From Blasia pusilla (Eukaryota): a stretch of 64,000 bases of DNA. Location: NCBI GenBank assembly GCA_050084515.1, contig CM114271.1, forward strand, positions 434,001-498,000. The letters run 5' to 3'. The notes beneath the pieces were generated by a model. The model was not told where the DNA came from, did not search any database, and was given only the letters and a program-made list of their open reading frames with translations. The position numbers and the translations under genes are program-made. Below are positions 4,401 to 64,000 of this stretch, piece after piece. Every line of letters starts with the position of its first letter. Position 1 is the first letter of the stretch.

Positions 4401-5445
4401 TGTGTTTCTTTTGAATAAACTCTTAGATTACGGTGTCATGGGATATGGACCATTGTAAATGAAACTTATGAACATATCTTCAATTTCTTCATGCCAGTCA
4501 CACAAACATTACACAGACGTTACAGCTGCACTTTTACACAAACATGCCCTCTTCTTTACAGAGTTTCTGACTGATATTCTCCTATTCAATCTCATTCGCT
4601 TGTCATTGAAATGTTTGTCTGGATGGTTTTTGACTCTGGAGAGCTTTTAAATTGGTGGTGGCTACAGGCGTCGTGGAAATGCTGAAGTAGCAGCTAGTCC
4701 TGGACCAATTCAAGGGCAAATGATGCAGCAGCAGCAGCAGATGGTTCCTGTCCAGGACAGCTACATGCAGAGCAGAGCAGAGGCACTTCATAATGTAGAG
4801 TCTACTATTGTAGAGCTCGGTCACATATTTCAGCAGCTGGCTGATATGGTTGCACAGCAAGGTGAACTTACTGTGCGGTAAGTTCGTGTGCCCTTTTTCC
4901 ATGACTTTCATGTTCATGTTAAACTCTATTTTTAGTTTGGGAATCAACCATAATTACCAGTTGTAAAGCTATTTAATGTTCAGTTTTCGTGAAGACTAGT
5001 ATATGGAATGAACTTTCTTTCATTTTTTTTATGCAGTGTTTTCATGACATTTCAGCTGAAAGATGTTGTAATTACGTTTGTTTCTTAGGTTTGATTTGTG
5101 TTGCCGTACATGACAGCAGCAAAGATAGTCTGTAATATGTAAGGACTGAGAGTCTGTAATATGTAGGGTCTCAGTCCTTGAGCTGAACTATCAAGTAAAG
5201 GACTACTACCTGTGGATTTTGAAGACCTGAATTTGGACGCAGTAGTAATTGGTATTTGACATGTCAAACGTCAATCCTGGTGCAGGATTGATGAGAACTT
5301 GGATGACTCATTGGCTAATGTTGAGGGCGCACAAGGGGCGCTATTGAAATATCTAAGCCGAATATCATCCAACAGATGGCTGGTCATCAAAATATTTTTC
5401 GTGCTTATTGTTTTCCTACTAATTTTTGTCGTCTTTGTAGCTTGA
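1414..5445 (+). CDS. SYP32: Golgi Qa-SNARE syntaxin, SYP3/Sed5/syntaxin-5 family; exons 1414-1687, 2156-2406, 2716-2939, 4668-4877, 5286-5445
   Basis: GT-AG introns splice in frame. N-terminal YRDRTSE motif; KLAKRTSMFDDP...EIQELTAVIKQDI; NLKVHENRRQLF; SNARE motif DSYMQSRAEALHNVESTIVELGHIFQQLA...RIDENLDDSLANVEGAQ; C-terminal anchor SSNRWLVIKIFFVLIVFLLIFVVFVA*. Confidence 0.95.
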
Positions 5446-12868: not shown

Positions 12869-14011
12869 ATGCAATTGTTTCTGCGAAATATCTATGGCAG
12901 GATTGCAGCCTTGCAGGTGGAAAATCATCACACCGTTGCCGATGTGAAGCGCATGGCGATGCCACAAGCGCCCAGCTCTTTGTTGGAGGAGCTTTACGTG
13001 ACTCACGTCGGGCGTTTTTTGGCAGAGGATTCCGTGGTCTCAGACGTGGTTAAGACTGATTCTAGCACTGTGAGCATAGGATTGAGGCTTCGCGGAGGTG
13101 GAGGGGATGGTGGCGCAACAGGAGCCGAATCTCGTGATTGCTATTTGAAGATGTACGCAGAGAAGAAGCCGGATAAGGTGGATCCCAATGAAGCGAAGCT
13201 CGCAAAGTCTACTCGTTGTAATCTCTCCGCGGAAGCTTTGAAACCGCCGTGTGTCATAGATTTTCTCGGAAATCTGTATAACAAAGAAGCGGTGGTGCAG
13301 GCTCTACTGACTAAGAGCGTTCCCAAGAAGCTGAGGCATATTATCAAGGGCCTGAAAGACGTGATACCTATTCAACTGTCGTCAATTCCGGGGATCCGAG
13401 CTGACGATGACAGCGTAGAGACAAAGTTTCATTGTCCGATTACTGGTCAAGAATTCAACGGCAAGTTCAAGTTCTTCGCTCTTAGAGGTTGTGGTCACGT
13501 CTTGAGCGCTCGCGCGCTGAAGGAGGTGAAGACCAACTCATGTCTTGTATGCTATGCACCATTCAAAGAGACGGACAAGATCGTTCTCAATGGAACAGAG
13601 GATGAGGTGTTAGCCTTGCGTGAAAGATGGGAAGAAGAGAAACTTAGGTCCCGAGGAGACAAGAGGGAAAAGAAGTCTCAAACTGCGAATGCAGTACCGA
13701 CAAGATTAAGTAATGGCGAAGTGGCTGAGAAGGTTGATGCCAAGGTCGTGGATATGAATTCTACTGCTGCCACAGTCTTGAAAAGGAAGCCTGAAACTGC
13801 AGTCCTAGCGTCAGTGCAAGCACCGTCGATTCCTGAAGTGAGGCCGAAGGGATCCGATTTGATTCAGCCGTCGAAGAAGTTCAAAGCGGCGGACGTTTTG
13901 TTGCCACAGAATGCAACGAAGGCTGTGTTTGCATCCATTTTTACGTCCTCGAGTAAAAACAGCTTGAAGGAGACTTACAGTTGCAGATCTCTTCCACTCG
14001 GAAGGAATTGA
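12869..14011 (+). CDS. RTF2: Replication termination factor 2 (RTF2) with N-terminal ubiquitin-like domain, 380 aa, intronless CDS
   Basis: Ubiquitin-like start MQLFLRNIYG... ending in LRLRGG. Rtf2 domain GGDGGATGAESRDCYLKMY...GNLYNKEA...FHCPITG...CGHV...CLVC. Plant-type C-terminus SIFTSS...ETYSCRSLPLGRN. Confidence 0.93.
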   Translation: MQLFLRNIYGRIAALQVENHHTVADVKRMAMPQAPSSLLEELYVTHVGRFLAEDSVVSDVVKTDSSTVSIGLRLRGGGGDGGATGAESRDCYLKMYAEKKPDKVDPNEAKLAKSTRCNLSAEALKPPCVIDFLGNLYNKEAVVQALLTKSVPKKLRHIIKGLKDVIPIQLSSIPGIRADDDSVETKFHCPITGQEFNGKFKFFALRGCGHVLSARALKEVKTNSCLVCYAPFKETDKIVLNGTEDEVLALRERWEEEKLRSRGDKREKKSQTANAVPTRLSNGEVAEKVDAKVVDMNSTAATVLKRKPETAVLASVQAPSIPEVRPKGSDLIQPSKKFKAADVLLPQNATKAVFASIFTSSSKNSLKETYSCRSLPLGRN

Positions 14012-26099: not shown

Positions 26100-26615
26100 T
26101 GTCACGTCTTTTAGGACAGATCGGTGAGATCTAATAGAGCGCCTTCATGAGAAGTAGAGGACACGCTCAGTAGGTTGCGGATGATCTGCTGAGGCCCCGG
26201 GAAACCTGAGAGAGCCGATTTCCCCTTCGTTTCGGCTCATTTGGAGCCATATTGAGGAACTTACTATTTTAGGTAAGTACTATTTTGAGTATATGATCGA
26301 CTTTCTATTTTTGGTAAGTGGCCCTTGACCTCCTACATCAGGTCAAGAGCCAAGGAGGTGACTTGGGAGAATAGGTTACCATGGAGAGAGCTTGGGAGAG
26401 GGGAGGGGTATACCTCAAGGAGAGAGAGAGTTTGAGAGCTCATTCTCTCTTTGTTGAACCTCTTGGCATAAGGCGGCGGAGCTATGGTACCTTGCCTTGT
26501 GAGTATAACCCAAGCCTCTCATTAGGAGAGTGGGTTTGGTTTGACATGAGAGAGAGTGCACACCTTTGAGAGATATGGTGTGAGATGGTGGAGAGAGAGA
26601 TTGGATCCTACTTTA
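26100..26615 (+). repeat. Terminal repeat unit 'a' (5' copy, ~516 bp) of copy A
   Basis: Matches the reverse complement of 55594-56110 along its length. Its last 73 bp are identical to 31380-31452. Confidence 0.9.
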
Positions 26616-28221
26616 CAAAGAGAGAATGAGAGAGTGAGAGAGCTTCATGGGGGAGCTCGCTGGTCACTCACTGTTTTTCAGGTTGGGGACCGTGTTCCCC
26701 GTTCAGCGGCTCATGGGAGTGCTCACCGGAGCAAGGGCTGCTTTCATTATTGTTTGCATTTGCTGATTTTTCGTGTGGAAGAGTGGCGTGCGGAAGCGCT
26801 GCCCAATTATTGATAGGGATTGAGTATGGGGGCGGGTTGCCCCATGCTGGTGCTCTCGGGAGCACCATATAGCTTGCTGATTTGTATTTATACAGATGTT
26901 ATATTTTCGTTGGGAGAAATCAGCGCGGGAGCGCTGCCGGATTTTGTGTAGGAGAAAGAGAAATTGGGCTTTACGACAATCCCCGTCAGTTTTTACTGAA
27001 ATGTCTGATTCTAAATATTTTTTGATGCTGGCGTAGATCATGAAGCTGTGCACGCTTTGAAACAAACAATGCGCAATTTGGAGTTGCGAGCAAAAAGTTA
27101 TGGTCAATCTTGTAAAGCTACCATTGCTAGGCGATTTTTAGAGTTAAATTGTGCAAACCTTAAATCAGCCGCCACACCGGCGGCGGCCGTCGCCATCATA
27201 GTCACCGTCACCGGTCAAGGGTCAACGATCACCGTAGATGGTCAACCATCACCGTCACCATCAACGGTCAACCGTCATCGTCAGCAGTCAACCGTCACCG
27301 TCGACGGTCGGCCGTCACCATCAGCGGTCAACCGTCCACCGTCCATTGTCCACCCTTTGGGTGCCATTGCCGCCATTATGGAGTGGAGGTTCTTCCACGA
27401 CGTTCGTTGATTCCTTGACTTGCGTCACCATCACTTACTTTGTTTTGGCCACCACCGTCATCGCAGTTTCTTCATCAACCAGTGATGGCAGATGACCTCC
27501 GGTTATGGTGTTTGAGTTTTGATTTCATGTTGCTATGTTGTGATTGGTAGCCGCTCGACGACGATCGAGTATCGTGCCATGACGCCCGTAGTCGCAACGC
27601 GCCTCCGATTGCCGCGTCTTGCCGCTCGTGGCCGCACCGCACCGTCTCGATCGCGGAGCCGCACCGTCATTGTGGAGCAGAGTGTGGGTTTATTGTTGAT
27701 TGAGGAGGTTATGCCGCCGAGTGCCGCATCCCACCATCGAGGGCCGTGCCGTTTGTAGCCGTTCCGTGCCGCCTGCAACGCCGCACCGTTCCGCTGGGAG
27801 GAGTTTTGAGCAGCGTCAGTACGGGAGGAGAATGACTTGCTGATTGGAGGAGTTGTCTCCACGATCAAGTTGGGGTCGAGATTTGCAGTTGCTGAGGAGC
27901 GACATCGACATGTGTTTAGGTTACCCATTCTGGTCCTTTACCCTGCACGTGTGAGGGATTCTGGGATTTTGGTAGTTTATTTGGGGATATTGGGTGTGTG
28001 GATGCTGAGAGCATCATTTATGTATGTGGTTTAGGGGACATAGACCTGTGTGGGATGCCGGAGTTGAGGATAGGTTGTCGATGAGATGATAGCCTGGTCG
28101 ATTTGCCGCACCACGCCGAGTGTTGTCGCCGTTACACGTCTCGGGGAGAGAGAGTGTAGATCGAGTGCCGCATGTTTGGGATGAGTGATTGAAGGATTCC
28201 TCAGGAGGTTCAGAGTGATCG

Positions 28222-29610
28222 GGTGAGAGGGGCACGAGGGTCATCACGGAGTCCGTTCGGGACTTTGAGAGGCGAGGTGGTGAACCCGAGAGTAGCTCGA
28301 GAGGTTTTACGTCGAGTGGCGCGAGGTTTCGAGGGTCTCCACGTGAGGGACTACCTCGACCTCCTTCTGTGTCATCGTCAGACGAGGGGGAGGATGTAGA
28401 GGAGTTTGTGAGCACATCGCCACACATTGTGAGTGGTCCTACCAGTTGGGCGTACGAGATGGACGACCGGGGTAGAGGACCGCGTAGGTTTTCAGGTGCA
28501 GTAGGCACGATTGAGTTGCACGATTTTATAGTAGAGTTTAGGAGTTGGTGCGACTCCCAACGAGCCAAGAACTCTAGAGAGTTCAACCCGTTTACAACAT
28601 GGAACGGTATGTTCCAGCATTTAGAGGGGGCGCCCATGGACGATTACCATGAGTTCTCTTAGAGATATGCATGTGAGATAGAGGCGTGGAGGCTCTACTA
28701 TAACCCACATTATGTGTCATGGACGGAGCCATTCCCAGATGAGGAGGAGGAGTCAGGAGAGGCTACTGCCTCTTCCACTAGTGACGTTTTAGGAGGGGTC
28801 ACTCGCACGGAAGCAGTTACACCGTCTAGTCGGGTTCGTCCCAGGTTCAACCCTGTGGTTGAGTTCTTTGCTGAGTTGAGGGCGAGCTACCAGGGGGTAC
28901 GGACGGAGAAGTTGCGGAGCATCCACAACTTCCAGAGGCGCCCGGGTGAGAGTTTGCGTGAGGCTTACACTCGCTTGCGCCGGTTGATCAACGTCACTCA
29001 GGGGTGACAAAGGCTCAGGCTATCCAATCATGGTACGCGATGTTGGACCGGACCCTGCGGACACGGGTGCGGGAGGGGGTGCTTCTTATGAACATCTCCC
29101 CTACGTTGAGAGATGTTTTTAGGACCACCGAGAACATTGAGCGCAACATGGCGGAGGAGAGCGTAGCCACCATGGGTTCTGGGCGAGAGCGATCCACGAT
29201 TACATTGGCGCACCATGTGCGGCAACGTGGACTCTGAGATAGGTCGACTATGGCACCACGAGCTCAGGGAGGATACCGGAAGGCCGTGCCACAGAGACAT
29301 GCGCCTTCATATGCGGCTCAGCAGCAGCCGTCTACTATTACTTGTTGGTCATGTGGTGGAGCCCATCATCAGCGCAATTGCACTCGTCAGGGTCATGGGC
29401 GTGTGCCTTAGCTTGGAGGAGGAGATGGTGCTGCACCAGGAGGTTATCAGTGTGACTATTGTCAGAGGTATGGTCATACACGCGCTAGGTGTTTCAGTTT
29501 ACATCCTGAGTTACGTCCTGACTGAGGGCCAGAGAGGGCACCAGAGCGAGTAGCCGGTCCGGGTGGGCCTAGAGATCGTGCACCAGGTGGTCCCGTTGGG
29601 GGACGAGGTG
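28222..29610 (+). pseudogene. gag: gag of copy A (stops and frameshifts)
   Basis: RRFSGAVGTIELHDF...; QRRPGESLREAYTRL; two zinc knuckles CWSCGGAHHQRNC and CDYCQRYGHTRARC. The start is approximate. Confidence 0.8.
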
Positions 29611-29939
29611 GTCCCGTTGTGTACCGCACTCCTTTATTTTCTGCTTCCGATGTTATGACGTTGGGGGGTATGCCCGCCAAGGCTTTTCGGCTGGCCGCTT
29701 CACTATGTGAGCGCGGAGTTGGAGTTCGTGCATCACGTTCAGAGGTGATTGCAGAGGAGGTGATGGACCTGCCCTTGGAGCGGATGCTTGCGCCGCCCAC
29801 GCCATTCATGGCATCTTTGCGGTCGCTAGGATGGCGGAGATGCCCGCTAGACCGCGATAGAGCGTGCCATGGCTTCTCTTGGTGTTGTGTTTTGGATAAC
29901 CGAGGAGAGGTCTTCCGGTTGGTGAGTCCTGGAGGTAGA

Positions 29940-30250
29940 GCTTTTAGTCCGCGCAGGCGTCTTGTTGATTCAGAGCGCAACCCTTGATGTTGGGGAAAGC
30001 GTCATTGAGGATTGGGCTTGACGAGAGCCGATGTGGAGCGTTTTCCATTCCGGATCCAGACATCCTTGGGTGGAGCAAGTACCACACAATATATCACCCG
30101 ACATGAGGTCGTGGTGAGGATTCGCCCGGGACATCCTACAGATGAGTGCGTGGTGCGCGCCTAGGCGATAGTGACTGATGCAGAGTCCTACGACGTCTTG
30201 GTTGGTGGAGCAGTGTTATACCCGATGGGGTTTTCCATGGATTACTGGGA
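29940..30250 (+). pseudogene. Degenerate aspartic protease of copy A
   Basis: Homologous to copy B VLLDSGAQ (here decayed to LVDS) plus the YDVLVG motif. Confidence 0.7.
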
Positions 30251-30669
30251 GGAGTCGGCCCCTGAGACCAGGATGGCGATCGGTGATGGGCGCCTTAGCT
30301 CATTACCCGTTCGATTCACAGGTGCAGTGATCGAGCAACGGCCAAGAGAGATGGCGACCTTAGCAGCATTTAGTAATGCCATCACTTGGCCTAGTGATTT
30401 GATTGAGGGACATGTCCATGCAGAGGATACTCCCGTTCCTGACATTTCTATGGAGAGGAGTGTTATGGTAGTGCATCATTCCGTGGAGGAGAGGTGCTGT
30501 GGGGCTCGGCGAGGAGCTTCAACGATTGGCGAGATGAGACACGTCAGGCCGCGTGGAGCGGGCGTTTGCACCACGAGCGTGACGGGTTGAGGAACCCGAG
30601 GTAGCAAGGAGTGCTACGATGACACCCTTGGATACCACACCCATTGTGTGGTGTACCCCGGAGGAGGGT

Positions 30670-31379
30670 ATTCGAGTGTTAGATCTCTTTGGAGGGATTA
30701 GCACCGGGTTAGCTTGCATTTTGCAAAGGTGAGTGCGAGTCTGGCCGAGTACCTATATGTGGAGAGTGATGATGTTGCGAGGCGCGTCTCACTAAGACAT
30801 GTGGCGCAATTACGCCTACGTTTTCCCAACTTATTATCGGTCACGCAGATGTGGGTACCAGAGTTCCCTACCGAGGGATATTTTGTTGTTGGGGGCGCAG
30901 GACTTAGAGCGGGTAGGGACCATTGATTTGGTCATTGCATGTTGGCCATGTCAGGGCCAATCGAGTGCTGGACGAGGCAGCGGGTTGGCTGACACTTGGT
31001 CCAGCTTGTTTTGGGAGATGTTGAGGGTCTTACTGGCGATTTGCAGAGCACCGGCCTCGTTCTCCGGCCTACATTCTGGAGAATGTGCCGATCTTAGGAG
31101 ACTCCAGGTCACGGGTGGTGACGAGTGCTCATCAGGTGCGTGCCTGGATCGGCCCAGCAATGTTCTTGGAAGCGGCGAGTGTAGGTTCTAGAGCCCATCG
31201 CCCGCGTCTATGGTGGACCAACTTGGTGCCCCATGCGGTGTTATGGAGGGCGTATGCGAGAGTGGAGCACCCCTCCCATTTGTTAGTGGATTCCATTCTG
31301 GATCGAGGTCGTCGATCACAGGCTGTGAGGCACAATGATCGACCACCGTTGACTGTGGTCAACAGGGTAGGCATGCGGG
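30670..31379 (+). pseudogene. DNMT3-like C5 cytosine methyltransferase domain of copy A (motifs I-VIII, truncated)
   Basis: IRVLDLFGGISTG (I), YLYVES (II), DLVIACWPCQGQS (IV), SSLFWEMLRVL, AYILENVP (VI), FLEAASVGSRAHRPRLWWTNL (VIII), read across frameshifts. Confidence 0.88.
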
Positions 31380-31580
31380 GACATGAGAGAGAGTGCACAC
31401 CTTTGAGAGATATGGTGTGAGATGGTGGAGAGAGAGATTGGATCCTACTTTAATTGGAGATATTTTGGTACTTCTTGTCTCGTTGTTTGGATGCCATGAG
31501 TTAGCATGGGATCATGCGTGTTTGTGTGTGTGTTCGGTGACAACGATGTATGTTGTGTAGCGATGTGTATGCGCACGACA
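31380..31580 (+). repeat. 3' end of copy A: last 73 bp of unit 'a' plus the 128-bp unit 'b'
   Basis: 31380-31452 equals 26543-26615. 31453-31580 matches the reverse complements of 56113-56240 and 55457-55593. Confidence 0.9.
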
Positions 31581-51100: not shown

Positions 51101-53068
51101 AATTGACAAGAGGTACTTTTTCAACTTTGTTGTAGAGAAGCTTATGTTTGATTGGTGAGACTATTGGCTACCCCAATTGATTAGTGGCCTATCAAGTAAA
51201 GATATGATACAAAAATATCCCATATGGAGACCATTGTATTTTGTATGAATGCCTATAAAAATTCAATTACTAAGAGCAATTGTTGATATACCCCGTTTTT
51301 CCACGCTCACATCTTCAGGCACCCATCCTCATGGAGCCATAATTACTCTTCCTTCACCGCACTCTTACTACTAGGAACCCCCGTACATACAATACCTACA
51401 TGTTTATGCCTTACTACCTTAGTCCTTGGCAGGCATATCTATGCAACCCTTACCTTCCGTCATGTGTTACCTGACTATGTGCGGCTCCAAGACCCTCTAC
51501 AGCTCAATTTCTTCACTCGGACGCCCTCATGGCCGCGTGACCTAACCCTACACCGGGTGCGCCCTAACTAGCCCCTCGGCGGCTGCAAGGTATGAACGCA
51601 CACTCTCTCTCCTTCCCAAATTTTTTGACATTCACTGCTCACTTGTCGATGCAACACTTGCAACCACCCGTCGCCACAACCTGCGCTACCCCCTTCTGCT
51701 GTCCCCCATCAACCCATACCAACGAGATCTAAGAAAAACGGACAACACTTCCGTGCACAACCTTCCAAACACAAAAATGACAAAAAATTGCACATACGCG
51801 TCTCTAGGGCTCCCCACCGAGGCAACTCACTTGCCTACCTACAAAAAATGAATTCCCTGCCCCCTCGCAACATCTTTCTCATGTAAAATCAAGAGTAGTA
51901 AAAATGGCTCACTAGGCCTAAAACTCCACTCATGAATCTACATCGGCATATTGAACCACATCCACCCTCTGCTATTAGAGAATCCGGACGCTAGCACCTT
52001 AACTCCTACACATCCACACACGTCTATGCAAGAGAGGTGCTCCTAAGGCTCAACATGAGAAAGATGGCTTGAGAAAGCCATCTCTCTCACTCTTCCCCCA
52101 AAAATAGCCCTACCGACGGTAACTTGTGTGCACAGGTTACCGGATGACCATTGACCAAGTCAACGGGTCGCATGACGGACTTAAACCAAAATAGGGAAAT
52201 TGCCATAAATGACGTTCCCGACATAATAGACCTGTCACCAACCTCATCCGACATCTCGGGACGAAGTTACACCCAAACAAACCTACTAATTCTGTATGTT
52301 GTCGACGCGATAGAACTCTACCTACGTTGAGATAAGATGTGATAGATGAGACCTTCTTGCAAAATAACGTTTTTCTATTTTTCTTCCTTTTCGAGGATTT
52401 CATCTTAAACTTGAATTTGAAAGTGGATCCAAGCATGCTCCAAGGTTTCAAGGAAAATAGAGTTGTGATCAAAAGCCCAAAAATAGTAAGGTGGTTTTAA
52501 TTAGGACTCGCACGATTAATTATACCTTCTAGCTAAATAGGGTCTTTCTACTTTCCATCTTATTCAACGATTTTTTCTTGACCTAAAATTTTGGACACTT
52601 GATCCTTAAGGTGTATCTATATTTTGTGAAAAGTTTCAAGGAGAACGGAGTTATGGCGAAGAGCTCAGAAATTAGTGGGTTGTCCGATGGATCCCCCATT
52701 CTCTTTTCCCCTCAAAACTCATAACTTGACATGAAACTTTCTCTCTTGGTGTTTTGGAAAGTTTTTATAACTTGCCTATAAAATCTTTTGGAAAGTAAAT
52801 ATGCCAAAAAAGTTCTCTCCTCAAAGCGGTACTTTTTAATCGGAGCTTTGATGTAAAATATTACTTTATTATCGAGAATGTTACAAAAAGGAATCTCTAT
52901 AAAATGACATTCTTACAAAACTCTTTACAAAACAAGTTCATTATAACTATTTACTAGTATGTTTCACTAACTTCACCAATGACTCTATTAGTCTTGATCT
53001 ATGGTTGGGTTTGGTGGGTTTAGATGTAGGCGGTAATTTGGCGGCTCAAGAGTTCTAAGTTGGATGGA

Positions 53069-55343
53069 TCAACGAAGATTTCCTATTGCAATTGTTTCAT
53101 CATTGGAGGAAAAGTATGAACTATCCACGATTTTGTTGGAAGGTTGAGAGTTATGTACAACAGGTATGAGAACCTCATCATCACCAGACTCATCTACTAA
53201 GTCCACTCTTTCAACATTCAAAGATTGTGGAGGAGGATCCCTTTGTGGTTCACTAGACTTGGTGGAATAATTCTGAATTCCTACTGGTGCAATAATATGA
53301 GGATCATAGGTTGTGTTAGCAGAAATGCTACTTGTATCGCTTCGATTGAAGTCCTCTGTTGTTGTTCTTTCTCGTGCTCTCGAATCCAATTTTCCATTAC
53401 ATAGTCATCTTGGTTGCTTCCATAAGGGCTAAGGCTCAGATGATATATTGGCCCCTCGGATTCAGAGTTTTCAATGTTGCCTATATGGATATCGTGCCCA
53501 CCTTTGGTGCCTATATTCCACATAGTACATCCATACCCTCTAGGTTCTCATCTTGCAAGTCGAGGTTATCTTCATGATAACCATCATGATTTATCATATG
53601 TAAGCTAGACTCACTAATGTATTCTACAACCCTTATAGCTTTTTTTTGTCCATCCCTTTCAAAGAAGTATTGCCCGCACAATAATGCTAGTTTCGATTTT
53701 CTTGAAACACCCTTGTCTCCAAACCTTGAGTCTGTAGATGTATACCAAATCTCTAACACGCTTATTGGTCAAATTAAGTCTGTGCTCATTATGCACTAAA
53801 CCTAACTACTCCAATTTCTCTCCGCTAAAGAGGAAGAGACCACTTGTGCTAATATGGATTTAGCCAAAGAGCGCAATGTTGGGGCACCTTGACCAATTGC
53901 ATGCTCCACCAATTGGAGGGACGAAGTGAATCGACGACTTTCCTGCCAAACTCATCCACAAATAGTTCTTGAAGGTTCACAATGTTGCCCAACTCTCGCA
54001 AAAAAGTAGCTATATAAGAATTTGCCTCGATGACGTTGAGGCTATGCATCACCTTTTGCATAGACTTTCAATTATTGTTTCAAATCCTCATGCACTCAGC
54101 ATTTGAGGTGACGTCTTGAAATACTATCAAGAAGATTGTAAGGGGCGAGAATAAATGCATGTAGCCTACTGTATGTAATTTATAGTGGATAAGTTCCCAA
54201 TGCTTAGAAATAACATCAATCATTTATGTAGCTATGGACATTGTTACGAAAAATTCGCGGCGCCGTCCATCCACACAAGGCCATGGAGTTACAGGATAAA
54301 AATAATTCGCTTCCATTATCTCAAATATACTGCGATAAATATGCTATGTCATTGGCTTAAGACCATTACACTCTCTCAACAGAATAATAGTTTGCAAAGC
54401 TGCAAGAAACAATTCTTCACCTTCTATAAAAAAATCGTGATTTCCCACAATAGTTTTGATCTCTTGTTCCTTCTCCCTTTGCCTCACATACCTCCCATTG
54501 AAGTACTCCCTAAAAGCATTTGTGGCAACCACGGCACATAATATCTTCCTTAATTCTAAGATATGTCTCAACATTATAAAGTTTGTTGCAAAGCGTGTAT
54601 TTGCAAGAAGCAACAATCATGTCTTCATTGGGTTGATTTCCATGAATTTGGCCATCATCCAAGTTCTTGTATTCATAAATACTACCATCTCATGAGCTTA
54701 TGTAAAAATCCTCTCCACCCAAGGCTACTTATTCCAATCTTCGCATACTATATCAAGAGAATGTAAGACGCGTTCATCCCAAAGAGTATGAGGATTTCCC
54801 CTCGGTGTCTATCAACTTGATCATGACCTCACCTTGAGGACACAAGATCATGATGTTCACTAAAGACTCACTCCTCATATTAGTCTAAAAGTCCGTGATG
54901 ATTGTGGCCCCGAAACAGAAATTATCGGATATGCCATCCACCTTTTTCTTCACCTTTCCCATATGTTTCTCAAGCAGAATGGTGCGCGACCAAGTATAAC
55001 TAGGACTTGAGTAACACTTCACATTTCTTGATGCCAACACTACTAGCTTGAAAGCATCTTGCCGTACTTTGTTGTTGAATTGTATTTCAGAATTCTAGAA
55101 ACACATCGCCCATATATCATTTGCAACTTCTATTCCTTTGATGTTGAAAGAATCCTTGATATCAGCTTGCTTCTTTCTGGTACTACTAGTCGTCCAACTC
55201 AGCCCAGTTACTACTCTGCATTCATCGAGATTGTAACTCTGTGATATATCTGAAATCCCATCAACATTGGACACAACGTAAATACTATTTCCTGTGTATT
55301 GCAAACCTACTTGTAATGGCATCGTCTCCTCCACTTCACTCAA
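53069..55343 (-). pseudogene. hAT-superfamily transposase remnant (DUF659/RNase H-like plus C-terminal dimerisation region)
   Basis: NTRFATNFIML (54344-54616 ORF); PSNWW...LRSLAKSILAQVVSSSLAERNWS across a frameshift (~53800-53930); N-terminal IWAMCF*NSEIQFN. Many stops. Confidence 0.75.
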
Positions 55344-55456
55344 GGGTCTCCCTTTCCTTCTTTATTAATTTCTATAACAATCTTGGAACACACTATGAAC
55401 AAGAAAGATAAATATGCTAACATAGATAATCGAGATACCTTTAATTATCAAGGTTA

Positions 55457-56240
55457 TGTCGTGTGCATACACATCGCTACACAACATACATCATTGTCAC
55501 CGAACACACACACAAACACACACAAACACACACGATCCCATGCTAACTCATGGCATCGAAACAACGAGACAAGAAGTACTAAAATATCTCTTATAAAGTA
55601 AGATCCTATCTCTCTCTATACCATCTCACACCATATCTCTCAAAGGTGTGCACTCTCTCTCTCATGTCAAACTAAACCCACCCTCCTAATGAGAGGCTTG
55701 AGTTACACTCACAAGGCAAGGGATCATAGCTCCGCCGCCTCATGCCAAGAGGTTCAACAAAGAGAGAATGAGCTCTCAAGCTCTCTCTCCTTGAGGTATA
55801 CCCCTTCCCTCCTTCAAGCTCTCTCCATGGTAACCTAATCTCCCAAGTCACCTCCTTGTCTCTTGACCCGATGTAGGAGGTCAAGAGCCACTTACCAAAA
55901 ATAGAAAGTAGATCACACACTCAAAATGGTACTTACCTAAAATAGTAAGTTTTTTCAATATGGCTCCAAATGAGCCGAAACAAAGGGGAAACCTGCTCTC
56001 TTAGGTTTCTCGGGGCCATAGTAGGTCATCCTCGACCTACTGAGCCTATCATCCACTATTCATGAAGGCGCTCTACTCGATCTCCCCGATCTATCCTAAT
56101 AGACGTGACAGCTGTCATGCGCATACACATCGCTACACAACATACATCGCTGTCACTGAATACACACACAAACACGCACGATCCCATGCTAACTCATGGC
56201 ATCCAAACAACGAGACAAGAAATACTAAAATATCTCCAAT
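55457..56240 (-). repeat. 3' terminal array of copy B: b1 (56240-56113), GC, a2 (56110-55594), b2 (55593-55457)
   Basis: b1 and b2 are ~90% identical direct repeats (b2 has a 10-bp CA-rich duplication). a2 matches 26100-26615. Confidence 0.9.
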
Positions 56241-56431
56241 GGCCCCATAGTTGGTGATTAGGTCCATGTTACTCCAGATGACCCTCTATCCCTTCCTACC
56301 ACGACATACATCTCTAGGACGCTAACAACAGAAAGGCCGAGTCCTCATGTGGCCCCATCGTTAGTCGCCTTCCTGTCATCCATGTCACAGAAAAATTCGG
56401 AATCGAAACCTATATAGTATCTCGTCTATAT

Positions 56432-56566
56432 TCATCTGGGACACATCCATCGTCCCCGAGGAACCCTAGTGAGAGGTGGCGTCAGACATGCCATATGCCA
56501 ACCTCTTGAACATCCATCACAAACTAGCATCGTGGCCGCACCACGGGCAGAACCACACAACATACA
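56432..56566 (-). other. PHD finger at the C-terminus of the copy B integrase
   Basis: CMLC-x11-CDGC-x4-HMAC...PPLTRVPRGRWMCPR* fits C4HC3, with the last Cys codon replaced by TGA. Confidence 0.88.
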
Positions 56567-56759
56567 ACGCAAGCCTGCAGGAACTACTGCTAAGCTCGGA
56601 TCTACTGTACCATCAATGGTAGGAAGGTGACATGGCACGCAATTACGCACATGGTCCTTCCATACCATACCATCACGGCCCTCCAGCAAGAGAATACCGG
56701 ATGGCAAAACATCACACACTCTCAGGAGAGTGCGCCCTACAATCATATCCAACATCGTC

Positions 56760-57680
56760 GGTGCCGTCTACTGCAAGTAGACATAATCTCCCTAATGAAA
56801 CCTCATGATAGTTGGTCGATAACCACCACCCCGAATAGTCGCATACCTCAACGTATCACGATGTTGCGCAATCGCCAAGTTCTCGAACGCCATGGGCATC
56901 ACTCTTCGAAACAACTCAGCCCTGTGAGAACATGCTCGCATTCATAAATCTAGGTCATCAAGGTCTAGCACCTCACCAGTATCTCGACGAATGGCCGCAG
57001 GTAAATCTAGCTCTGAGCCATAAAGTAGCAAGTACGGTGAAAATGACGCTAAGGATGTCTGCCTGATGAATCTGTATCCCATCACCAACCAGAGCAACTG
57101 GAGGTTCCAATCTCCTAGGTGATCTCTCTGCAAGCCATACTTGTGTAAACCCCTCTTCACCATCTGCACAACTCTCTCCGCGAATCCATCCCCCTCGGGA
57201 TGATCTCGCGAAGTCGTGTGGTGGTCGATCAGCGCATGATCACACAAGGCCTGGAACTCATCACGAAACTCGGTACCTTGGTCTGTCAACACCTTAGCCG
57301 ATGCGCCATAATGACTCAGCACTTTGTCAAGGAAGGCATAAGCTACTCCCTCACTCTCTTTGTCAGGCAATGCAACCAACTCGATCCACTTCGAGAAGTG
57401 CTCGACCATCACCAACACATAACGACTGTGACGCTCCGTCAAAGGCAAAGGTCTTGCAAAATCCAAACTCCATCTATACCCTAAGCCCATGATCGGTAAT
57501 GGATGCAACTGTGTAGTCGGAGCATTGAACGATGCTTGGACCGGATCACACACCATGCACCTGGCAACAAACTGCTGAAAGTCAGTCTGCATGCCTCGCC
57601 ACCAATACTGAATTTGGAGCAAGTTGTACGTTCGCTTCACCCCAAAGTGACCCAACTTCTCGTGGGCATGCTACACTAGT
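56760..57680 (-). pseudogene. DDE integrase of copy B
   Basis: HHCC region GHFGVKRT...YWW...CMVCD. Core WSLDFARPLP...YVLVMVEHFSKW...VLTDQGTEF...HPEGDGFAERVV. Confidence 0.92.
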
Positions 57681-58069
57681 CGTGCTCTCTGCAAAGGATG
57701 CGTTACTATGCGTACTCTTCCATCCTCCCAAATCCTCAAAACATGTGTCCCCTCCCAACGGAACCGTCTGGCCCGCTCTAGGATCCGATCCCGCTCTCTA
57801 GCATCCACGGTGCTTGAAACGCTGCCAGTACAAAGGTACTCCAAGACTACTCCATCATCATGAATATCTCGGCCACTTGTCGTCTCCTCACTGGCCTCCG
57901 AATCCAAGGACTCTCCACTAGATCTCGCCATCGAAGTCTTCACACTCTGGCTCTCCATAGCCAATATGCCTAAATAGGCTGACACGTGCCATCCTGGCAC
58001 TGACTCCTCATCACTCTCTCCATGCCATCGAGCTCCAATTGCATCTCACTGACTCGGGCATGGATTACG

Positions 58070-59400
58070 ACTCAACCCATATGCATCCTGGTTGAGCGTC
58101 CCAGGTTTATGTACCACCTAAAAATCATACTCCTGCAACAAGAGAGCCCATCTCGCAAGCTTCCCTGTAAGCTTATCAGACTCCATCAACCACTTCAGTG
58201 GTTGATGATCAGTGATGATGGTAAAGGGGTTGCTGAATAAATAACATCTGAAATGGGCGACAACCCACACCGCAACCAAGAACTCACCCTCATACAAGCT
58301 GTACTTTGCCTCTACAACGTTGTTCGATCGGCTAGCGTAAGCCACCACGAACTCTCTACCCTCATCATCATGTTGGGTGTGCACCGCTCCAAGCCCCAAC
58401 ATGCTCCAATCTGTGTGCAACTAGAAAGGAAACCCCCTAATCGGTCTCCTCAAGATGGGCGCGGACATCAACCTCTCCTTGAGCAACTAAATTGCTCGCT
58501 CGTGTTCATCCCCCCAGTGCCACTCGTGATCCACCTTGGTCACCGGCTTTGCAATCAAACTCAATCCCTTGACATACCGTTGATAGAAGTTTTCCAATCC
58601 CATGAATGCGCAAACACGGCTCACATCTGTAGGGCGTGGAATGCGTGAGATAGCCTCTACCTTAGTCTACTGAACACCAAGGCCCCCTAGGTATATCGTA
58701 TGACCCAAGTTCTCAATCTGGTCGTAGAAGAACTTGCACTTGTCTGGATGTAGCTTCAGCTCATGTAATTGCAGTTGTCAAAACACCTCCTCTAGATGTC
58801 GCTCATGCTCCTCAATCGTGGCGCTAAACACTATGATGTCATCAATATAACACCTTGCAAAATCCAGACCAGCCAAGATCCGATCCATGACCCTCTAAAA
58901 ATCAACTTGGGCGTTCTTTAACCCAAATGGTAAGAACTGCCACTGGTACAAACAATCCTTCTCGTGATGATCGATGCCCCAAAATTCCGTCTTCTGCATG
59001 TCCTCTAATCTGATAGGCAGTTGATGGTATTCGGCTCGCAAATCCAATGAACTGAAGACCTTTTTGGGACCAATCGCATCAAAAATCTCCTCAAGGGTGG
59101 GCATGGCATACCTATCAAATTTTGTCTGCCGATTGATAGGTCGATAATCCCCACACATCCGCCTATCCGTCCAATTGCCATGCACATCCTTCTTGGCGGG
59201 CATGACAGTGGCAGATGCATACTCCCCATGCGAAATCTCCACCAGTCCTGCTCCGGCTAAGTCCTGGCTCCTACTCTGAATCCAAGCCCTCTCCATATAA
59301 TTGTATCTGTAGGGTCGTCGGAAGATCGGCGTATCACTCGACAACTCAATGCGTATCCCCGGTCCCTTCAGCGTACCCAAATCCTCCATGCTAAATGCAA
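58070..59400 (-). pseudogene. Reverse transcriptase and RNase H of copy B
   Basis: RRMCGDYRPIN, FSSLDLRAEYHQ, LPFGLKNA, YIDD at 58838-58849. RNase H HTDWS..GLGAV, VAYASRS, IITDHQPL, LARWALLLQEYDF. Confidence 0.93.
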
Positions 59401-59829
59401 AGTAGCTCCTATAACTCCTGAGGAACTGATGTATCCGGCACCGCTCTCATCTTGTCAACTTAGGTCCCATATCTGGCTCCGAAGTCTCTATCGTGACTAC
59501 AGTAGGACTCTTCGGTGCCAGTATCGGTGGTTGCTATGGTGCAACCCGGTCTCGAACAACAACACTTGGCCGCGCTCTTGCAGCCAACTGCAAACTCTGA
59601 TCTCCTCCATATGCAGTGCCCGGAACCACGCTCGATGTTGTGGCTTTCATCTCCTGGCGTACGTGCAAAAAATCCCAAGAAGTCCAAGGGTGTCTCTCCC
59701 CTGGTGTGTAGATCTCCTCGGGTCTCGCCCCTGGCCACTGCCTCCACCATCTCGATAGGCATGGGGCTCACCAACACAACCCCTGTGATCTGTCGCAATC
59801 TCATACGACGCTACTCAGCCACTCCCAAG

Positions 59830-60773
59830 CTGAGGATCCATATCAAGCAGTTCAGGTCCATCGCCTGACCCAAGACATGGCGTCGTGATACCTCTGACCC
59901 TGAAGGTATTTCTGTCACTCCTGTGGGAAATCCCATCGCTCAGTCTCTCTCGTCAGCGTTGGGCTCTACCAACCGCTGAACCTGGTCATCCCAAACCAAG
60001 CCAGGACCGGCCTCCTTGTATGCATAGGAAGCCGGAAAACTCACAAACGTGGGCAAGGCTGCCCGCGGCTTGCCTACCTTGTTGACCACTGTCAACAATG
60101 GTCGATCATCGTCCCTCACTGCTTGTGATGGATGACCTGGATCCAAAATGGAATCCACTAACAAATGGGAGGGGCGCTCCACTCTCGCATACACCCTCCG
60201 TAACACCGCATTGGGCACCAAGTTGGTCCACCATAGACGGGCGCAATGGGCTCTAGAACCTACACTCGCAGCATCCAAGAACAATGCTGGGCCGATCCAG
60301 GCACGCACCTGATGAGCACTTGTCCCCACCCGTGACCTGGAGTCTCCTTAGATCGGCACATTCTTCAGAATGAAGGATGGAGAACGAGATTGGTGCTCTT
60401 GCAACTGCCGAAAGACCCTCAACATCTCCCAAAATAACCTGAACCAAGTGTCAACCAACCCATTGCCTCGTCCAGCACTCGATTGGCCCTAACATGGCCA
60501 ACCGGAAATGACCAAATCAATGGTCCCTACCCGCTCTAAGTCCTACGCCCCAACAATGAAATATCCCTCGGTAGGGAACTCTCGTACCCTTATACCGCGG
60601 ATGCAGACAATAAGCCAGGAAAAATGTAGGCATAACTGCGCCACATGTCGTAGTGAGACGCGCCTCGCAACATCATCACTGTCCACATACAGGTATTGCT
60701 GTACTTGCACTCTTGGCTGCAAAACATCAGCTAACCCGGTGCTTATCCCTCCAAAGAGATCTAACACTCGAAT
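59830..60773 (-). pseudogene. Complete (motifs I-X) DNMT3-like methyltransferase domain of copy B, between protease and RT
   Basis: IRVLDLFGGISTG; YLYVDSD; DLVISGWPC*GQS; FLDAASVGSRAHCARLWWTNL; EPNADERD*AMGFPTGVT...SRRHVLGQAMD. These parallel DNMT3 IRVLSLFDGIATG / DLVIGGSPC / AHRARYFWGNL / ERVFGFP...RQRLLG. Confidence 0.9.
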
Positions 60774-61199
60774 ATCCTCCTCTGGGATACACCACAGAAT
60801 CGGTGTGGTATCCAAGGGTGTCATCGTAGCACTCCCTGCTACCTCGAGTTCCTCAGATCCGTCACACTCTGGTGCAAACGCCTCGCTCCACGCGGTCTGC
60901 ACGTGCTCATCTGCCAATCGTCGAAGCTCCTTAGTCGAGCCCCACAGCGGAACCTCTCCTCCACGGAATGATGCGGCTATCATAACACTCCTCTCCATAG
61001 AAATTTCAGGAACGGGAGTATCCTTTGCATGGACATGTCCCTCAATCAAATCACTAGGCCAAGTGATGGCATTGCTAAATGCTGCTAAGATCGCCATCTC
61101 TCCTGGCCGTTGCTCGATCACTGCACCTATGAATCAAATGGGTAATGAGCTAAGGCGCCCATCACCTGACTGCCATCCTGGTCTGTAGGATGCTGACTC

Positions 61200-61535
61200 C
61201 TCTCAGTAATCCAAGGCAAACCCCATTGGGTATAACACTGTTCCACCAACCAAGACGTTGTAGGACTCTGCATCAGTCACTATCGCCTTGGCTCGCACCA
61301 CAGACTCATCTGTAGGATGTCCTCGGTGAATCCTGACCATGACCTCCTATCGAGTGATATACTGTGTGGTACTCGCTCCACCCAAGGATTTCTGTATCCA
61401 GAATGGACAACGCTCCACATCGGCTCTCATCAAGCCCAATCCTCTGAATGACGCTTTCCCCAACGTCAGGGGTTGCGCTCCTGAATCCAACAAGACGCGA
61501 TGCGGACTAAAAGCTATACCTCCGGGACTCACCAA
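61200..61535 (-). pseudogene. Aspartic protease of copy B
   Basis: Catalytic motif VLLDSGAQ and downstream YNVLVG. Confidence 0.85.
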
Positions 61536-62168
61536 CGGGAAGACATCTTCCCACTAGGAGAAGCCACGGCACGCTCTATCGCGGGTCTAGCGGGCATCTC
61601 CGCCATCCTAGCAGCTGCAGCCTGCCATGAATCTGACGTGGATGACCCAAGCATCCGCTCCAAGGGCAGGTCCATCACCTCCTCTGCAATCACCTCTGAA
61701 CGTGATGCAGGAATTCCAACTCCACGCTCACATAGCATAGCGGCCAGCCGAAAAGCCTGAGCGGGTGTACCCCCCAACGTCATAACATTGGAAGCAAAAA
61801 AAAAGGAGCACGGTACACAATGGTGGCCGCCCCCAACAACGTACTCGAAACATACCCCTCATGAGCATCAACAATAGGAGTCGTTGCACTCGCTTCTTCC
61901 ATCGCCCTCTGTGCTTGCACACCAACAACATCACCAACTCTCTAGGAACTCTGATCAGGACCTATCGATGGGGTCCTCATTGCCTCGGACAAGACTGAGG
62001 AAGCCTAGTTTGTTTCCTGGCTTCCCCTCGTTGTGGATCCAACTCTACGGCTGCTCCACGCGTCACAACTGCGGCTGCCTCCATCTGGACAACCCCGCAT
62101 ATCCAACCAGGATCCTCCATATCTCTGGCTGCTCCATATGATGTCGATGCCACGGATCCGACATCGGG

Positions 62169-63710
62169 TTATCTCAATGCCATAGCGGCAATCCGGTCAT
62201 GTAGCTGGTGTATCTGAGCAGCCATCCTAGCCTCACGCCCGACATCTCCCTCGACGCGTCTAGGTGGTAGGACTCTACCTCCTCCACTGGCAGCTCCACC
62301 ACCGTGTCGGGCAACTCCATCTCCTCGTCCCCCAACAGGACCACCTGGTGTACGATCTCTAGGCCCACCTGGACCGACTACTCGCTCTCGTGCCCTCTCT
62401 GGCCCTCTGTCCAGACGTAACTCAAGATGTAAACTGAAACACCTGGCGCGTGTATGACCATTCCTCTGATAATAGTCACACTGATAACCTCTTGGTGCAG
62501 CACCATCTCCTCCTCCATGCTGAGGCACACGTCCATGATTTTGACGAGTGCAATCGCGCTGATGATGGGCTCCACCACATGACCAACAAGTAATAGTAGG
62601 CGGCTGTTGCTGAGCCGCATATGAAGGCACAGGTGTCTGTGGCACGGCCTCCCGGTATCCTCCCTGAGCTCGTGGTCCCACTATCGACCTATCTCGGAGT
62701 CCACGTTGTTGCACAAGTGGTGTAGACAATCGCGACTGCTCTCGCCCAGAACCCATGGTGGCTACGCTCTCCTCCGCCATGTTGCGCTCAATATTCTCGG
62801 CAGTCCTAAAAATATTTCTCAATGTAGGGGAGGTGTTCATAAGAAGCACTCCCTCCCGCACCCGTGTCCGCAGGGTCCGGTCCAGCTTTGCGTACCATGA
62901 CTGGATAGCCTGAGCCTCTGTCACCCCCTGAGTGACGTTGATCAACCGGCGCAAGCGAGTATAAGCCTCACGCAAACTCTCACTCGGGCGCCTCTGGAAG
63001 TCGTGGATGGTCCGCAACTTCTTCGTCCGTACCCCTAGGTAGCTCACCCTCAACTCAGCAAAGAACTCAACCACAGGGTTGAACCTGGGACGAACCCGAC
63101 TACATGGTGCAACTGCTCCCGTGCGAGTGATCCCTCCTAAAATGTCACTAGTGGAAGAGGAAGTTTCCTCTCGTGACTCCTCCTCCTCATCTGGGAACGG
63201 CTCCGTCCATGACACATAATGTAGGTCATAGTAGAGCCTCCACGCCTCGATCTCACGTACATATCTCTGAGAGAACTCATGGTAATCGTCCATGGGCGCC
63301 CCCTCTAAATGTTAGAACATACCATTCTATGCTGTAAACCGGTTGAACTCTCTAAAGTTCCTAGCCAGTTGGGAGTCGCACCAACTCCTTAACTCTGCTA
63401 TGAAATCGTGCAACTCAATCGTACCTACTGCACCTGAAAACCTACGCGTTCCTCTACCCCCGTCGTCCATCTCGTCCGCCCAACTGGTAGGACCACTCAC
63501 AATGTGTAGCGATATGCTCACAAACTCCTCTACACCCTCCCCCTCGTCTGACGATGACACAAAAGGAGGTCGAGGTGGTCCCTCACGTGGAGACCCTTGG
63601 AACCTCGCGCCACTCCGCGTAAAACCTCTACAGCTACTCTCGGGTTCACCACCTCGCCTCTCAAAGTCCCGAACGGACGCCGTGATGACCCTCGCGCCCC
63701 TCTCACCCAA
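62169..63710 (-). pseudogene. gag: gag of copy B
   Basis: ORFs 63327-63710 and 62169-63293: FSGAVGTIELHDF, QRRPSESLREAYTRL, knuckles CWSCGGAHHQRDC and CDYYQRNGHTRARC. Confidence 0.85.
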
Positions 63711-64000
63711 TTACTCTCTCCTTGCGAATAATCCCTCAATCACTCATCCCAAACATGCAGCACTCGATCTACACTCTCCCTCCCGTAGACGTGTAACGTG
63801 CGGCAACAAGCGGCGTGGTCCGGAAAATCAACCAGGCTATCATCTCATCGACAACCTACCCTCAACTGTGGACATGCCACACATGTCTATGTCCCCTTAA
63901 CCACATACATAAATAATGCTCTCAACATCCACACACCCAATATCCGCAAATAAGCTACCAAAATCCGAGAATCCCTCACACGTGCAGGGTAACAACCTGA

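Follow-up and report, generated by a model that had tools for sequence, protein, structure and literature searches.

A probable DNMT3-like cytosine methyltransferase encoded by a bryophyte Ty3/gypsy-type retrotransposon family, with two dead copies in Blasia pusilla

The element and its methyltransferase domain

The window analysed here, meaning the whole stretch of 64,000 nucleotides from Blasia pusilla (GenBank assembly GCA_050084515.1, contig CM114271.1, positions 434,001 to 498,000 of the forward strand), holds two related retrotransposon copies, A and B. Very probably these are dead insertions of a bryophyte Ty3/gypsy-type family which encodes its own DNMT3-like cytosine-5 methyltransferase. 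Copy B lies on the minus strand, from about 63.5 kb to 55.46 kb as delimited by stop-to-stop open reading frames (ORFs) and tblastn. By Pfam and tblastn its domains run in the order gag (CCHC), protease (PR), DNMT, reverse transcriptase (RT), RNase H (RH), integrase (IN) and C-terminal PHD finger, within which the succession gag-PR-RT-RNase H-IN, together with a DDE integrase, is that of Ty3/gypsy elements. The coding features of copy B are as follows.

61992..63476, minus strand: gag with a CCHC zinc knuckle (62571-62588) and three stops, from tblastn to residues 2-476 of the Marchantia protein P0244
61347..61553, minus strand: aspartic protease, VLLDSG at 61479-61496; relatives match Asp_protease_2 / gag-asp_proteas
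60791..61133, minus strand: linker between protease and methyltransferase, aligned across the family; a low-confidence part of the AlphaFold model
59814..60790, minus strand: DNMT3-like C5 cytosine methyltransferase domain, from motifs, PF00145, solved-structure and Foldseek matches; dead
59534..59536, minus strand: conserved stop TAG, then CAA CCA; candidate read-through site at the gag-PR-DNMT / RT-RH-IN-PHD boundary
57734..59479, minus strand: RT (YIDD at 58838-58849) and RNase H with eight stops, from Pfam and tblastn
56942..57670, minus strand: integrase, H2C2 zinc domain (PF17921, 52.2 bits) and rve core (PF00665, 52 bits)
56432..56566, minus strand: PHD finger at the integrase C-terminus (PF00628, 43.4 bits)

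A preliminary description of this DNA, made from its letters, had placed a C5 cytosine methyltransferase domain at 59830-60773, between the VLLDSG of the protease and the YIDD of the RT, and this is borne out by both the motifs and PF00145. The domain lies in a single minus-strand frame from 61133 to 59814, taken here as a 440-residue read-through translation (P0003) with X at four stops, which passes the profile PF00145 at 25.2 bits (Pfam cut-off 22). All six motifs are present, with lesions, in the unpermuted order I-IV-VI-VIII-IX-X. Motif I is VLDLFGGISTG (60735-60767); motif IV is GWPC (60489-60503), with a stop directly after PC; motif VI is KNV (60354-60371), where copy A has ENV; motif VIII is SRAHCARLWWTNL (60219-60257), with AHC where AHR is expected; motif IX is ERD*AMGFPTG (59919-59951), the asterisk being an internal stop; and motif X is LGQAMDLN (59850-59873). 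The four in-frame stops are TAG at 60543-60545, TAG at 60489-60491, TAA at 60348-60350 and TGA at 59940-59942, three of which differ by C-to-T changes (residues 197 and 215 are CAG in copy A, and 398 is arginine in relatives). Moreover, two compensating single-base indels, near 60547 and 60620, put about 24 codons out of frame, as judged against the family majority in reads of other members. The N-terminal linker of about 110 residues is conserved across the family and matches no known family.

The wording of the motifs had been described as closest to that of DNMT3, with which profile comparison, Foldseek and motif order all agree. The best solved relative of P0003 is DNMT3A (E 1.8e-8). A 26-sequence family profile, compared with solved structures, finds DNMT3A at 5.5e-24, DNMT3C at 1.1e-21 and DNMT3B at ~3e-21, as against 8e-14 to 8e-11 for tobacco and Arabidopsis DRM, 1e-7 for DNMT2 and 3e-6 for HhaI; no DNMT1 or CMT chain occurs in the 55 rows of that comparison at E<=0.01. 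An AlphaFold (AF2) model on the family alignment, whose core has a pLDDT of 70-85, gives DNMT3A/B/C throughout among the Foldseek matches listed, and bare methyltransferase-domain chains align with a TM of 0.65-0.74 on the target. In 26 relatives the catalytic Pro-Cys, ENV, the R-x-R of motif VIII and motif I, which binds S-adenosylmethionine, are at least 90% conserved. Upstream of the domain Pfam finds neither PWWP nor ADD, unlike in cellular DNMT3, the protease and linker standing there instead; indeed, the sole reader-type domain in the element is the PHD finger on the integrase. A search of the Atlas gave generic methylase clusters only. A DRM identity was also considered, and is rejected because the motif order is unpermuted.

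In the remainder of copy B, RNase H scores 106.8 bits in Pfam; the broken RT piece falls under its Pfam cut-off (25.8 against 29.6 bits). No tyrosine recombinase was found in the ORFs of the element, the integrase consisting of rve and the H2C2 zinc domain. Nor is there a chromodomain at the integrase C-terminus, where the PHD finger takes its place. The best solved relatives of this finger are those of CHD4, PHF12, KDM5A/B, KAT6A, DPF3, PHF21A, ATXR5, AIRE and UHRF1, most of which read histone H3 tails with unmethylated K4. In copy B itself the finger has a stop at the last zinc-binding cysteine of its relatives. In all, copy B contains at least 23 in-frame stops and at least three frame changes.

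Copy A is a second, shortened copy at 26.1-31.6 kb on the plus strand, in which the methyltransferase domain is cut by a deletion running into the 3' repeats. Its internal features are these.

26616..28455, plus strand: long untranslated leader, about 1.8 kb between repeat A1 and gag
28456..30437, plus strand: gag and protease, broken by frameshifts and stops, from tblastn
30598..31376, plus strand: methyltransferase from motif I to just past motif VIII, in three frames, with WPCQ and ENV kept

In the leader neither an ORF nor sequence conserved with the metagenome relatives was found. Positions 27938-31376 (+) of copy A align with 63992-60068 of copy B at 90.1% identity, with 29 gap events, of which 27 are not multiples of three, and a transition/transversion ratio of 1.8. 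The distance from domain to protease is equal in the two copies, and the alignment upholds the earlier statement that the domain sits at the same place relative to the protease in copy A. Both copies are dead, as had also been said: copy B by its stops, copy A by its 27 non-triplet indels and truncated domain.

Distribution, integrity and abundance of the family

A protein search returned 142 relatives of similar length, the best from Calypogeia fissa (57% identity) and further ones from Sphagnum, Marchantia and Riccia, together with 25 longer relatives, namely 15 Marchantia polymorpha models, one from Sphagnum fallax and nine others. Of the Marchantia models, P0244 reads gag-CCHC-protease-DNMT and P0250 protease-DNMT-RT-RNase H. 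These entries are gene models, which may splice over defects; ORFs on metagenome contigs cannot. Protease and DNMT are uninterrupted in the ORFs P0257, P0260, P0263, P0268 and one of the metagenome locus L076, which are 1228-1458 amino acids long, P0268 having CCHC zinc knuckles as well and P0263 the start of the RT, and the intact relatives reach 35-51 bits against PF00145. Uninterrupted ORFs of this length span gag/PR/DNMT.

Metagenome contigs were scanned with a pattern, which yielded 586 candidates; 331 of these were confirmed, and the best 80 loci were kept. Thirty loci are 9 kb or longer, and in them the order gag, PR, DNMT, RT, RH, IN, PHD is uncontradicted, none having the segment in another arrangement. 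In other words, the position of the domain is common to both window copies, the 30 long loci and the Marchantia, Calypogeia and Sphagnum proteins, in agreement with the earlier contention that it belongs to the element. The coding is continuous, with no separate duplication around the domain, and these two features together with the constant position rule out a captured host gene.

When 1.84 billion representatives were searched with the family profile, 12,784 matched at E<=0.001 and 521 at E<=1e-30, the best 150 representatives being element copies throughout. Among 20 representatives looked up were a Scenedesmus sp. pol and two Closterium proteins. A related methyltransferase domain is found in P0354 and P0430 (Scenedesmus sp. 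pol, a chlorophyte) and in P0280 and P0283 (Closterium spp., zygnematophytes), and the module therefore ranges well beyond Klebsormidium and the bryophytes. A tree of the domain was made from 44 rows, with eight of 52 candidates dropped for covering fewer than 250 profile positions and with no cellular enzyme as outgroup. In this tree full support is given to a group of 15 that unites copy B with sequences of Marchantia, Calypogeia and Sphagnum; those of Closterium and Scenedesmus fall in other groups. A different arrangement, RT-RNase H-DNMT-integrase-PHD in one ORF, was seen in P0266 (1707 amino acids).

Purifying selection on the domain, another point raised beforehand, is evident between intact relatives. 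The open domains of L076 and L075 differ with dN 0.038 and dS 0.251, a ratio of 0.15; L006 and L013 have a ratio of 0.18, at a high dS of 1.7, and the near-identical pair L006 and L017 one of 0.97. Across pairs with dS 0.2-1.5 the median dN/dS is 0.57 for DNMT, 0.55 for gag, 0.55 for PR and 0.41 for RT-RNase H, from which it follows that the domain is constrained like the other proteins of the element. These data show the methyltransferase to be an integral, selected part of the element.

The abundance of the family in the species was gauged from one genomic and three RNA runs of Blasia pusilla, mapped on 53000-64000 at a likeness of at least 85%. With both directions summed, six flank bins have a DNA depth of 17-59; the methyltransferase reaches 1330-1410, RT and integrase about 2000-2550 and the repeats 3250-3580, such that the element has some 40-110 times the DNA depth of the flank. 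Only 203 of 135,950 DNA reads are at least 99% like copy B, which is therefore a diverged member of a large family. At fixed sites in the flank at 53000-55200, 53536 and 53973 among them, every DNA read (run X15) disagrees with the window. The explanation is either that different individuals were used for the reads and for the assembly or that the flank belongs to a low-copy repeat. In the three RNA runs one direction has a depth of 14-222 over the element and the opposite one 0.4-15, with almost none over the flank. With the usual stranded protocol, the favoured direction is the sense strand of the element.

The RNA reads also contain a joint from 58303 to 59366, which skips 1062 bases (354 codons) across the RT and is supported by 9, 23 and 10 reads in the three runs; it occurs in none of the DNA reads. 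An intron was considered for this joint and is not called, because GT..AG is absent at any allowed offset. The joint may instead come from a deletion derivative that is transcribed, from template switching or from splicing of an unusual kind.

The stop ahead of the reverse transcriptase and the split repeats

In L076 two ORFs, of 1369 amino acids (gag-PR-DNMT) and 1047 amino acids (RT-RH-IN-PHD), lie in one frame with a single stop between them (5083-5085). The homologous stop is present in all 20 readable metagenome copies (in L006 at 11528-11530) and in copy B; two further metagenome copies are frameshifted ahead of it and stand outside the 20. CAA or CAG follows it in 18 of the 20, and in L049 and L077 a second stop replaces the glutamine codon. 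The contexts are TAA CAA CCC (seven copies), TAG CAA CCC (seven), TAG CAA CCT (one), TAG CAA CCA (L013 and the window copy) and TAG CAG TTA (L076 and L075). The Marchantia and Calypogeia models end 50-80 residues past the domain, as do the metagenome ORFs. In plants, tobacco mosaic virus uses UAG with CAR YYA after it as its signal for read-through, according to the accessible text of PMC2754532.

The conserved stop in the element would appear to be leaky, that is, a site of programmed read-through. Since the strict viral motif is found in few copies, the argument is made from the conservation of the stop and the frame shared across it. If the stop is leaky, the methyltransferase would accompany every Gag-protease and RT-integrase would be made only occasionally, such that the enzyme would be produced in the Gag-protease frame and not in Pol in the usual sense. 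In this regard the preliminary description, which had the domain inside Pol, needs amending: the domain does lie between protease and RT, yet it forms the C-terminal part of the gag-protease frame, before the conserved stop. The presence of a stop ahead of the RT thereby alters the dose of enzyme to be expected.

The repeats of the element, as seen in a sensitive self-comparison, have the layout A-coding-B-A-B, with A alone at the 5' end and B-A-B at the 3' end. The following were located in the window, the 5' repeat A1 of copy B falling outside it.

56113..56240, minus strand: copy B repeat B1, ending ...GACA, then two bases GC; from self-comparison
55591..56110, minus strand: copy B repeat A2, beginning TGTCAC; from self-comparison
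55457..55590, minus strand: copy B repeat B2, the 3' end of the element (...ACGACA); from self-comparison and loose read ends
26100..26615, plus strand: copy A repeat A1, beginning TGTCAC, with TCCT duplication 26096-26099 before it
31380..31580, plus strand: last 73 bases of A2 and repeat B2 of copy A, with TCCT duplication 31581-31584 after

In copy A the remnant of A2 is identical to positions 26543-26615 of A1 at 73 of 73 positions. Among 17 metagenome loci in which the layout was scored, A1...B1-nn-A2-B2 is complete in L051 (6095-15412) and L046 (1768-10971) and partial in L006, L052 and L009; L076 has no terminal repeats inside its 9.3-kb contig. Two complete identical long terminal repeats (LTRs) are found in none of copy A, L051 and L046. 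The element nonetheless has TG...CA ends (TGTCAC...ACGACA) and 4-bp target duplications, TCCT in copy A, TCTC in L046 and a match at three of four bases in L051. Copies A and B are homologous up to the very end of the element, and beyond it their flanks differ. Moreover, the sequence into which 1782 DNA reads continue past the outer edge of repeat B is AT-rich and varied, which is what a large number of insertion sites should give. Immediately before B1, where a polypurine tract would be expected, there is a conserved G-run, and loose RNA ends occur there. The B1-nn-A2 junction reads CA-nn-TG and resembles joined element ends. The coexistence of split repeats and a DDE integrase constitutes a replication puzzle.

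Some further observations concern these repeats. Repeat B contains a (GT/CA)-rich microsatellite (55480-55560 and 56130-56200) which in copy B is not of the same length in B1 as in B2, and reads seem cut within it at 55498-55537. Backward DNA joints of about 646 bases near 56240 were examined as a possible new structure and proved to be the normal passage from B to A, placed by the alignment on the other B copy.

Beyond the element, the host is identifiable from a neighbouring gene.

12869..14011, plus strand: intronless RTF2 homologue, a host gene outside the element, from protein search

This RTF2 is 71% identical to that of Riccia sorocarpa, 68% to Riccia fluitans and 64% to Calypogeia fissa, as against at most 57% to other plants (57% to an assembly protein, 56% to a lycophyte and 55% to Sphagnum). 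The flanking genes had been described as embryophyte, and the 64-71% identity to liverwort proteins now identifies the host as a liverwort. In base composition, the element copies form GC-rich islands (26-32 and 56-64 kb) of 52-55% GC and CpG observed/expected 0.74-0.84, in an AT-rich host background of 40-42% GC and CpG observed/expected ~0.6; other GC-rich stretches are at 1-2 kb and 38-42 kb.

Interpretation and comparison with known systems

Retrotransposons which carry the type of enzyme that normally silences them have so far been known from dinoflagellates and a single charophyte alga. In the accessible text of de Mendoza et al. 2018 (PMC5890265), such elements come only from Symbiodinium and Klebsormidium nitens, which agrees with the preliminary description's mention of reports from dinoflagellates and charophytes. 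The later wording 'streptophytes (Gypsy-DNMT3)' refers to that 2018 work, and PMC12344493, in its accessible text, says only 'streptophytes'. No paper describing Gypsy-DNMT3 in land plants was found, supplements, which may list cases, lying outside the search. The present results place the same kind of element widely in liverworts and peat mosses; in one liverwort at least, it is abundant and gives RNA of the sense strand. Since it is also found among the annotated proteins of Marchantia polymorpha, a model plant for which genetics, methylomes and transformation are available, the gain of a transposon from DNA methylation becomes testable in a tractable land plant. On the practical side, element-borne DNMT3 goes under the labels hypothetical protein or DNA (cytosine-5-)-methyltransferase in annotation, and host DNMT3 genes in bryophytes can be overcounted by its inclusion.

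A possible mechanism can be sketched as follows. With a leaky stop, every Gag-protease precursor would carry one methyltransferase, RT and integrase being added by read-through only. The enzyme would then assemble into the particle with Gag, be freed by the protease, and methylate the new DNA of the element before or at integration, which the PHD finger of the integrase might tether to H3 tails without K4 methylation. Taken jointly, the leaky stop, the packaged enzyme acting on new DNA and the tethering by the PHD finger are offered tentatively, as falling somewhat short of probable. Methylation of cDNA by a retrotransposon DNMT was already proposed in 2018 (PMC5890265, accessible text). What the element would gain from methylating itself could be either to pass as resident methylated DNA or to limit its own copy number.

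Several observations weigh against this interpretation or parts of it. With regard to the domain, the match of P0003 to PF00145 is barely over the cut-off and spans motifs IV-VI only, its separate ORF pieces in copy B have no Pfam match (0 of 2, and 0 of 3 at E<=10), and the mean pLDDT of the domain model is 61. Among the 74 copies that retain 300 or more of the 346 codons, only five have a stop-free domain. The mutual dN/dS of the window copies is 0.5-0.7 (0.71 for the domain), largely that of neutral decay, and for this reason, and being dead, the window copies say nothing about activity. With regard to expression, the strict UAG CAR YYA is found in only 4 of 21 copies, the commonest third codon being CCC, in seven cases with TAA. 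Nearly all RNA reads have a likeness of 85-95% to copy B and therefore come from other copies, the call of the sense strand assumes the usual type of stranded library, and the flank that serves as depth baseline may itself be a (low-copy) repeat. As for replication and targeting, no tRNA-type primer-binding site was recognised after A1, and the putative histone specificity of the PHD finger is taken over from its relatives. We know of no activity for any Gypsy-DNMT3. The domain of the Klebsormidium element, KnitGypsy-Dnmt3, gave no methylation in yeast, a result which its authors, in the accessible text of PMC5890265, call inconclusive.

This last result is also what lends some substance to the idea that the domain does not methylate DNA at all, being kept instead as a structural or nucleic-acid-binding module, or methylating RNA, for example the genomic RNA of the element; RNA methylation has been raised by the authors of the 2018 study for a LINE-borne enzyme (PMC5890265, accessible text). 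Against a pseudo-enzyme, however, stands the dN/dS of 0.15-0.18 between intact pairs, and the at least 90% conservation of the catalytic Pro-Cys, ENV, R-x-R and motif I in 26 relatives also speaks for catalysis. Moreover, the closest solved relatives are DNA enzymes and not DNMT2, such that this alternative seems rather improbable. A further account is hardly credible, namely that a host gene fragment landed by chance, or was transduced, in one element and was then spread to A and B by segmental duplication. It would fit there being only two window copies, both dead and 90% identical; but their homology ends at the element end with different flanks beyond, copy A has its own 4-bp duplication, protease and domain share one frame in 30 independent long loci and in four named bryophyte genera, and the segment has about 40 times the DNA depth of the flank.

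More weight attaches to the question of descent. Given the A-coding-B-A-B layout shared with KnitGypsy-Dnmt3 and the relatives in Closterium, it is plausible that the lineage has persisted from charophyte ancestors. The contrary view, in which bryophyte elements and KnitGypsy-Dnmt3 captured DNMT3 independently, or the element moved horizontally, is judged unlikely, with several points in its favour. Recurrent independent captures of DNMT are documented by de Mendoza et al., the accessible text of which places the acquisition by KnitGypsy-Dnmt3 in the K. nitens lineage (PMC5890265). In the domain tree Sphagnum lies inside the liverwort sequences on short branches, unlike in the host tree, with support of only 84-93. 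In P0266 the domain lies between RNase H and integrase, and the module therefore moves. No Klebsormidium protein is named among the matches listed, which is however a weak point, the searches ranking by shared words with only the best matches listed. Against independent capture stand the combination of A-coding-B-A-B repeats with a gypsy-type integrase, common to the bryophyte elements and KnitGypsy-Dnmt3 by the accessible description of the latter, and the relatives in Scenedesmus and in Closterium, a close algal relative of land plants.

Persistence can be extended into a fuller reading, which as a whole is doubtful. This would have a bryophyte-wide, still transcribed Gypsy-DNMT3-PHD lineage, inherited from streptophyte algae, that packages a pre-methylating enzyme at the dose of Gag and uses its PHD finger to pick H3K4-unmethylated chromatin. 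Given the CA-nn-TG junction in the split repeats, the DDE integrase would in this reading cut a site resembling a circle junction and not linear LTR ends.

Compared with cellular DNMT3A/B/C and plant DNMT3/DRM, the element domain has the catalytic fold and motif wording in common. It differs from cellular DNMT3 in lacking PWWP and ADD and in being embedded in a Gag-protease polyprotein, from DRM in motif order, and from both in its conserved linker of about 110 residues. As to expression, the leaky stop of tobacco mosaic virus likewise comprises an in-frame stop with CAA/CAG between an abundant upstream product and a polymerase; it differs in that the strict motif occurs in 4 of 21 copies of the element, in which read-through is a prediction from sequence. 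Gammaretroviruses also express gag-pol by read-through of a stop, which in their case follows gag and in the element follows protease and methyltransferase.

Chromoviruses are Ty3/gypsy elements with a chromodomain at the integrase C-terminus and ordinary LTRs, and to our knowledge they carry no methyltransferase. They share with the present element a chromatin reader at the C-terminus of a gypsy integrase, which presumably guides integration, the reader being a chromodomain in the one and a PHD finger in the other. The DIRS, Ngaro and PAT elements have A1-internal-B1-A2-B2 repeats, a tyrosine recombinase and no target duplication; the split repeats are as here, whereas the present element differs in its DDE integrase, TG...CA ends and 4-bp duplications. 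Three features of the family were not found described elsewhere: the PHD finger on the integrase, the stop that places the enzyme in the Gag-protease frame, and the TG...CA ends and 4-bp duplications on split repeats.

The nearest known systems are the two retrotransposons of de Mendoza et al., as far as the accessible text describes them (PMC5890265). SymbioDIRS-Dnmt3, of which the DNMT methylated CG in yeast, resembles the present element in that its polyprotein includes a DNMT3-like domain and its repeats follow the A-coding-B-A-B layout; it has a tyrosine recombinase, in contrast to the DDE (rve) integrase, CCHC gag, TG...CA ends and 4-bp duplication of the present element. KnitGypsy-Dnmt3 comes closer. 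Its text makes no mention, where accessible, of a PHD finger, a stop before the RT, element ends or target duplications, features which it may or may not share, and its host is an alga, whereas the host here is a land plant with relatives of the element in Marchantia, Riccia, Calypogeia and Sphagnum. Both hosts are nonetheless streptophytes, and both elements have an intronless, unpermuted DNMT3-like domain in a gypsy polyprotein, with a Ka/Ks below 0.2 in KnitGypsy-Dnmt3 and ratios of 0.15-0.18 in the intact relatives here. Moreover, KnitGypsy-Dnmt3 is described as combining gypsy domains with the repeats of the DIRS element of that study, 'A-coding region-B-A-B', as is found here, the likeness being one to the description and not to the sequence. 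It is this shared layout that forms the best link between the liverwort family and that of Klebsormidium.

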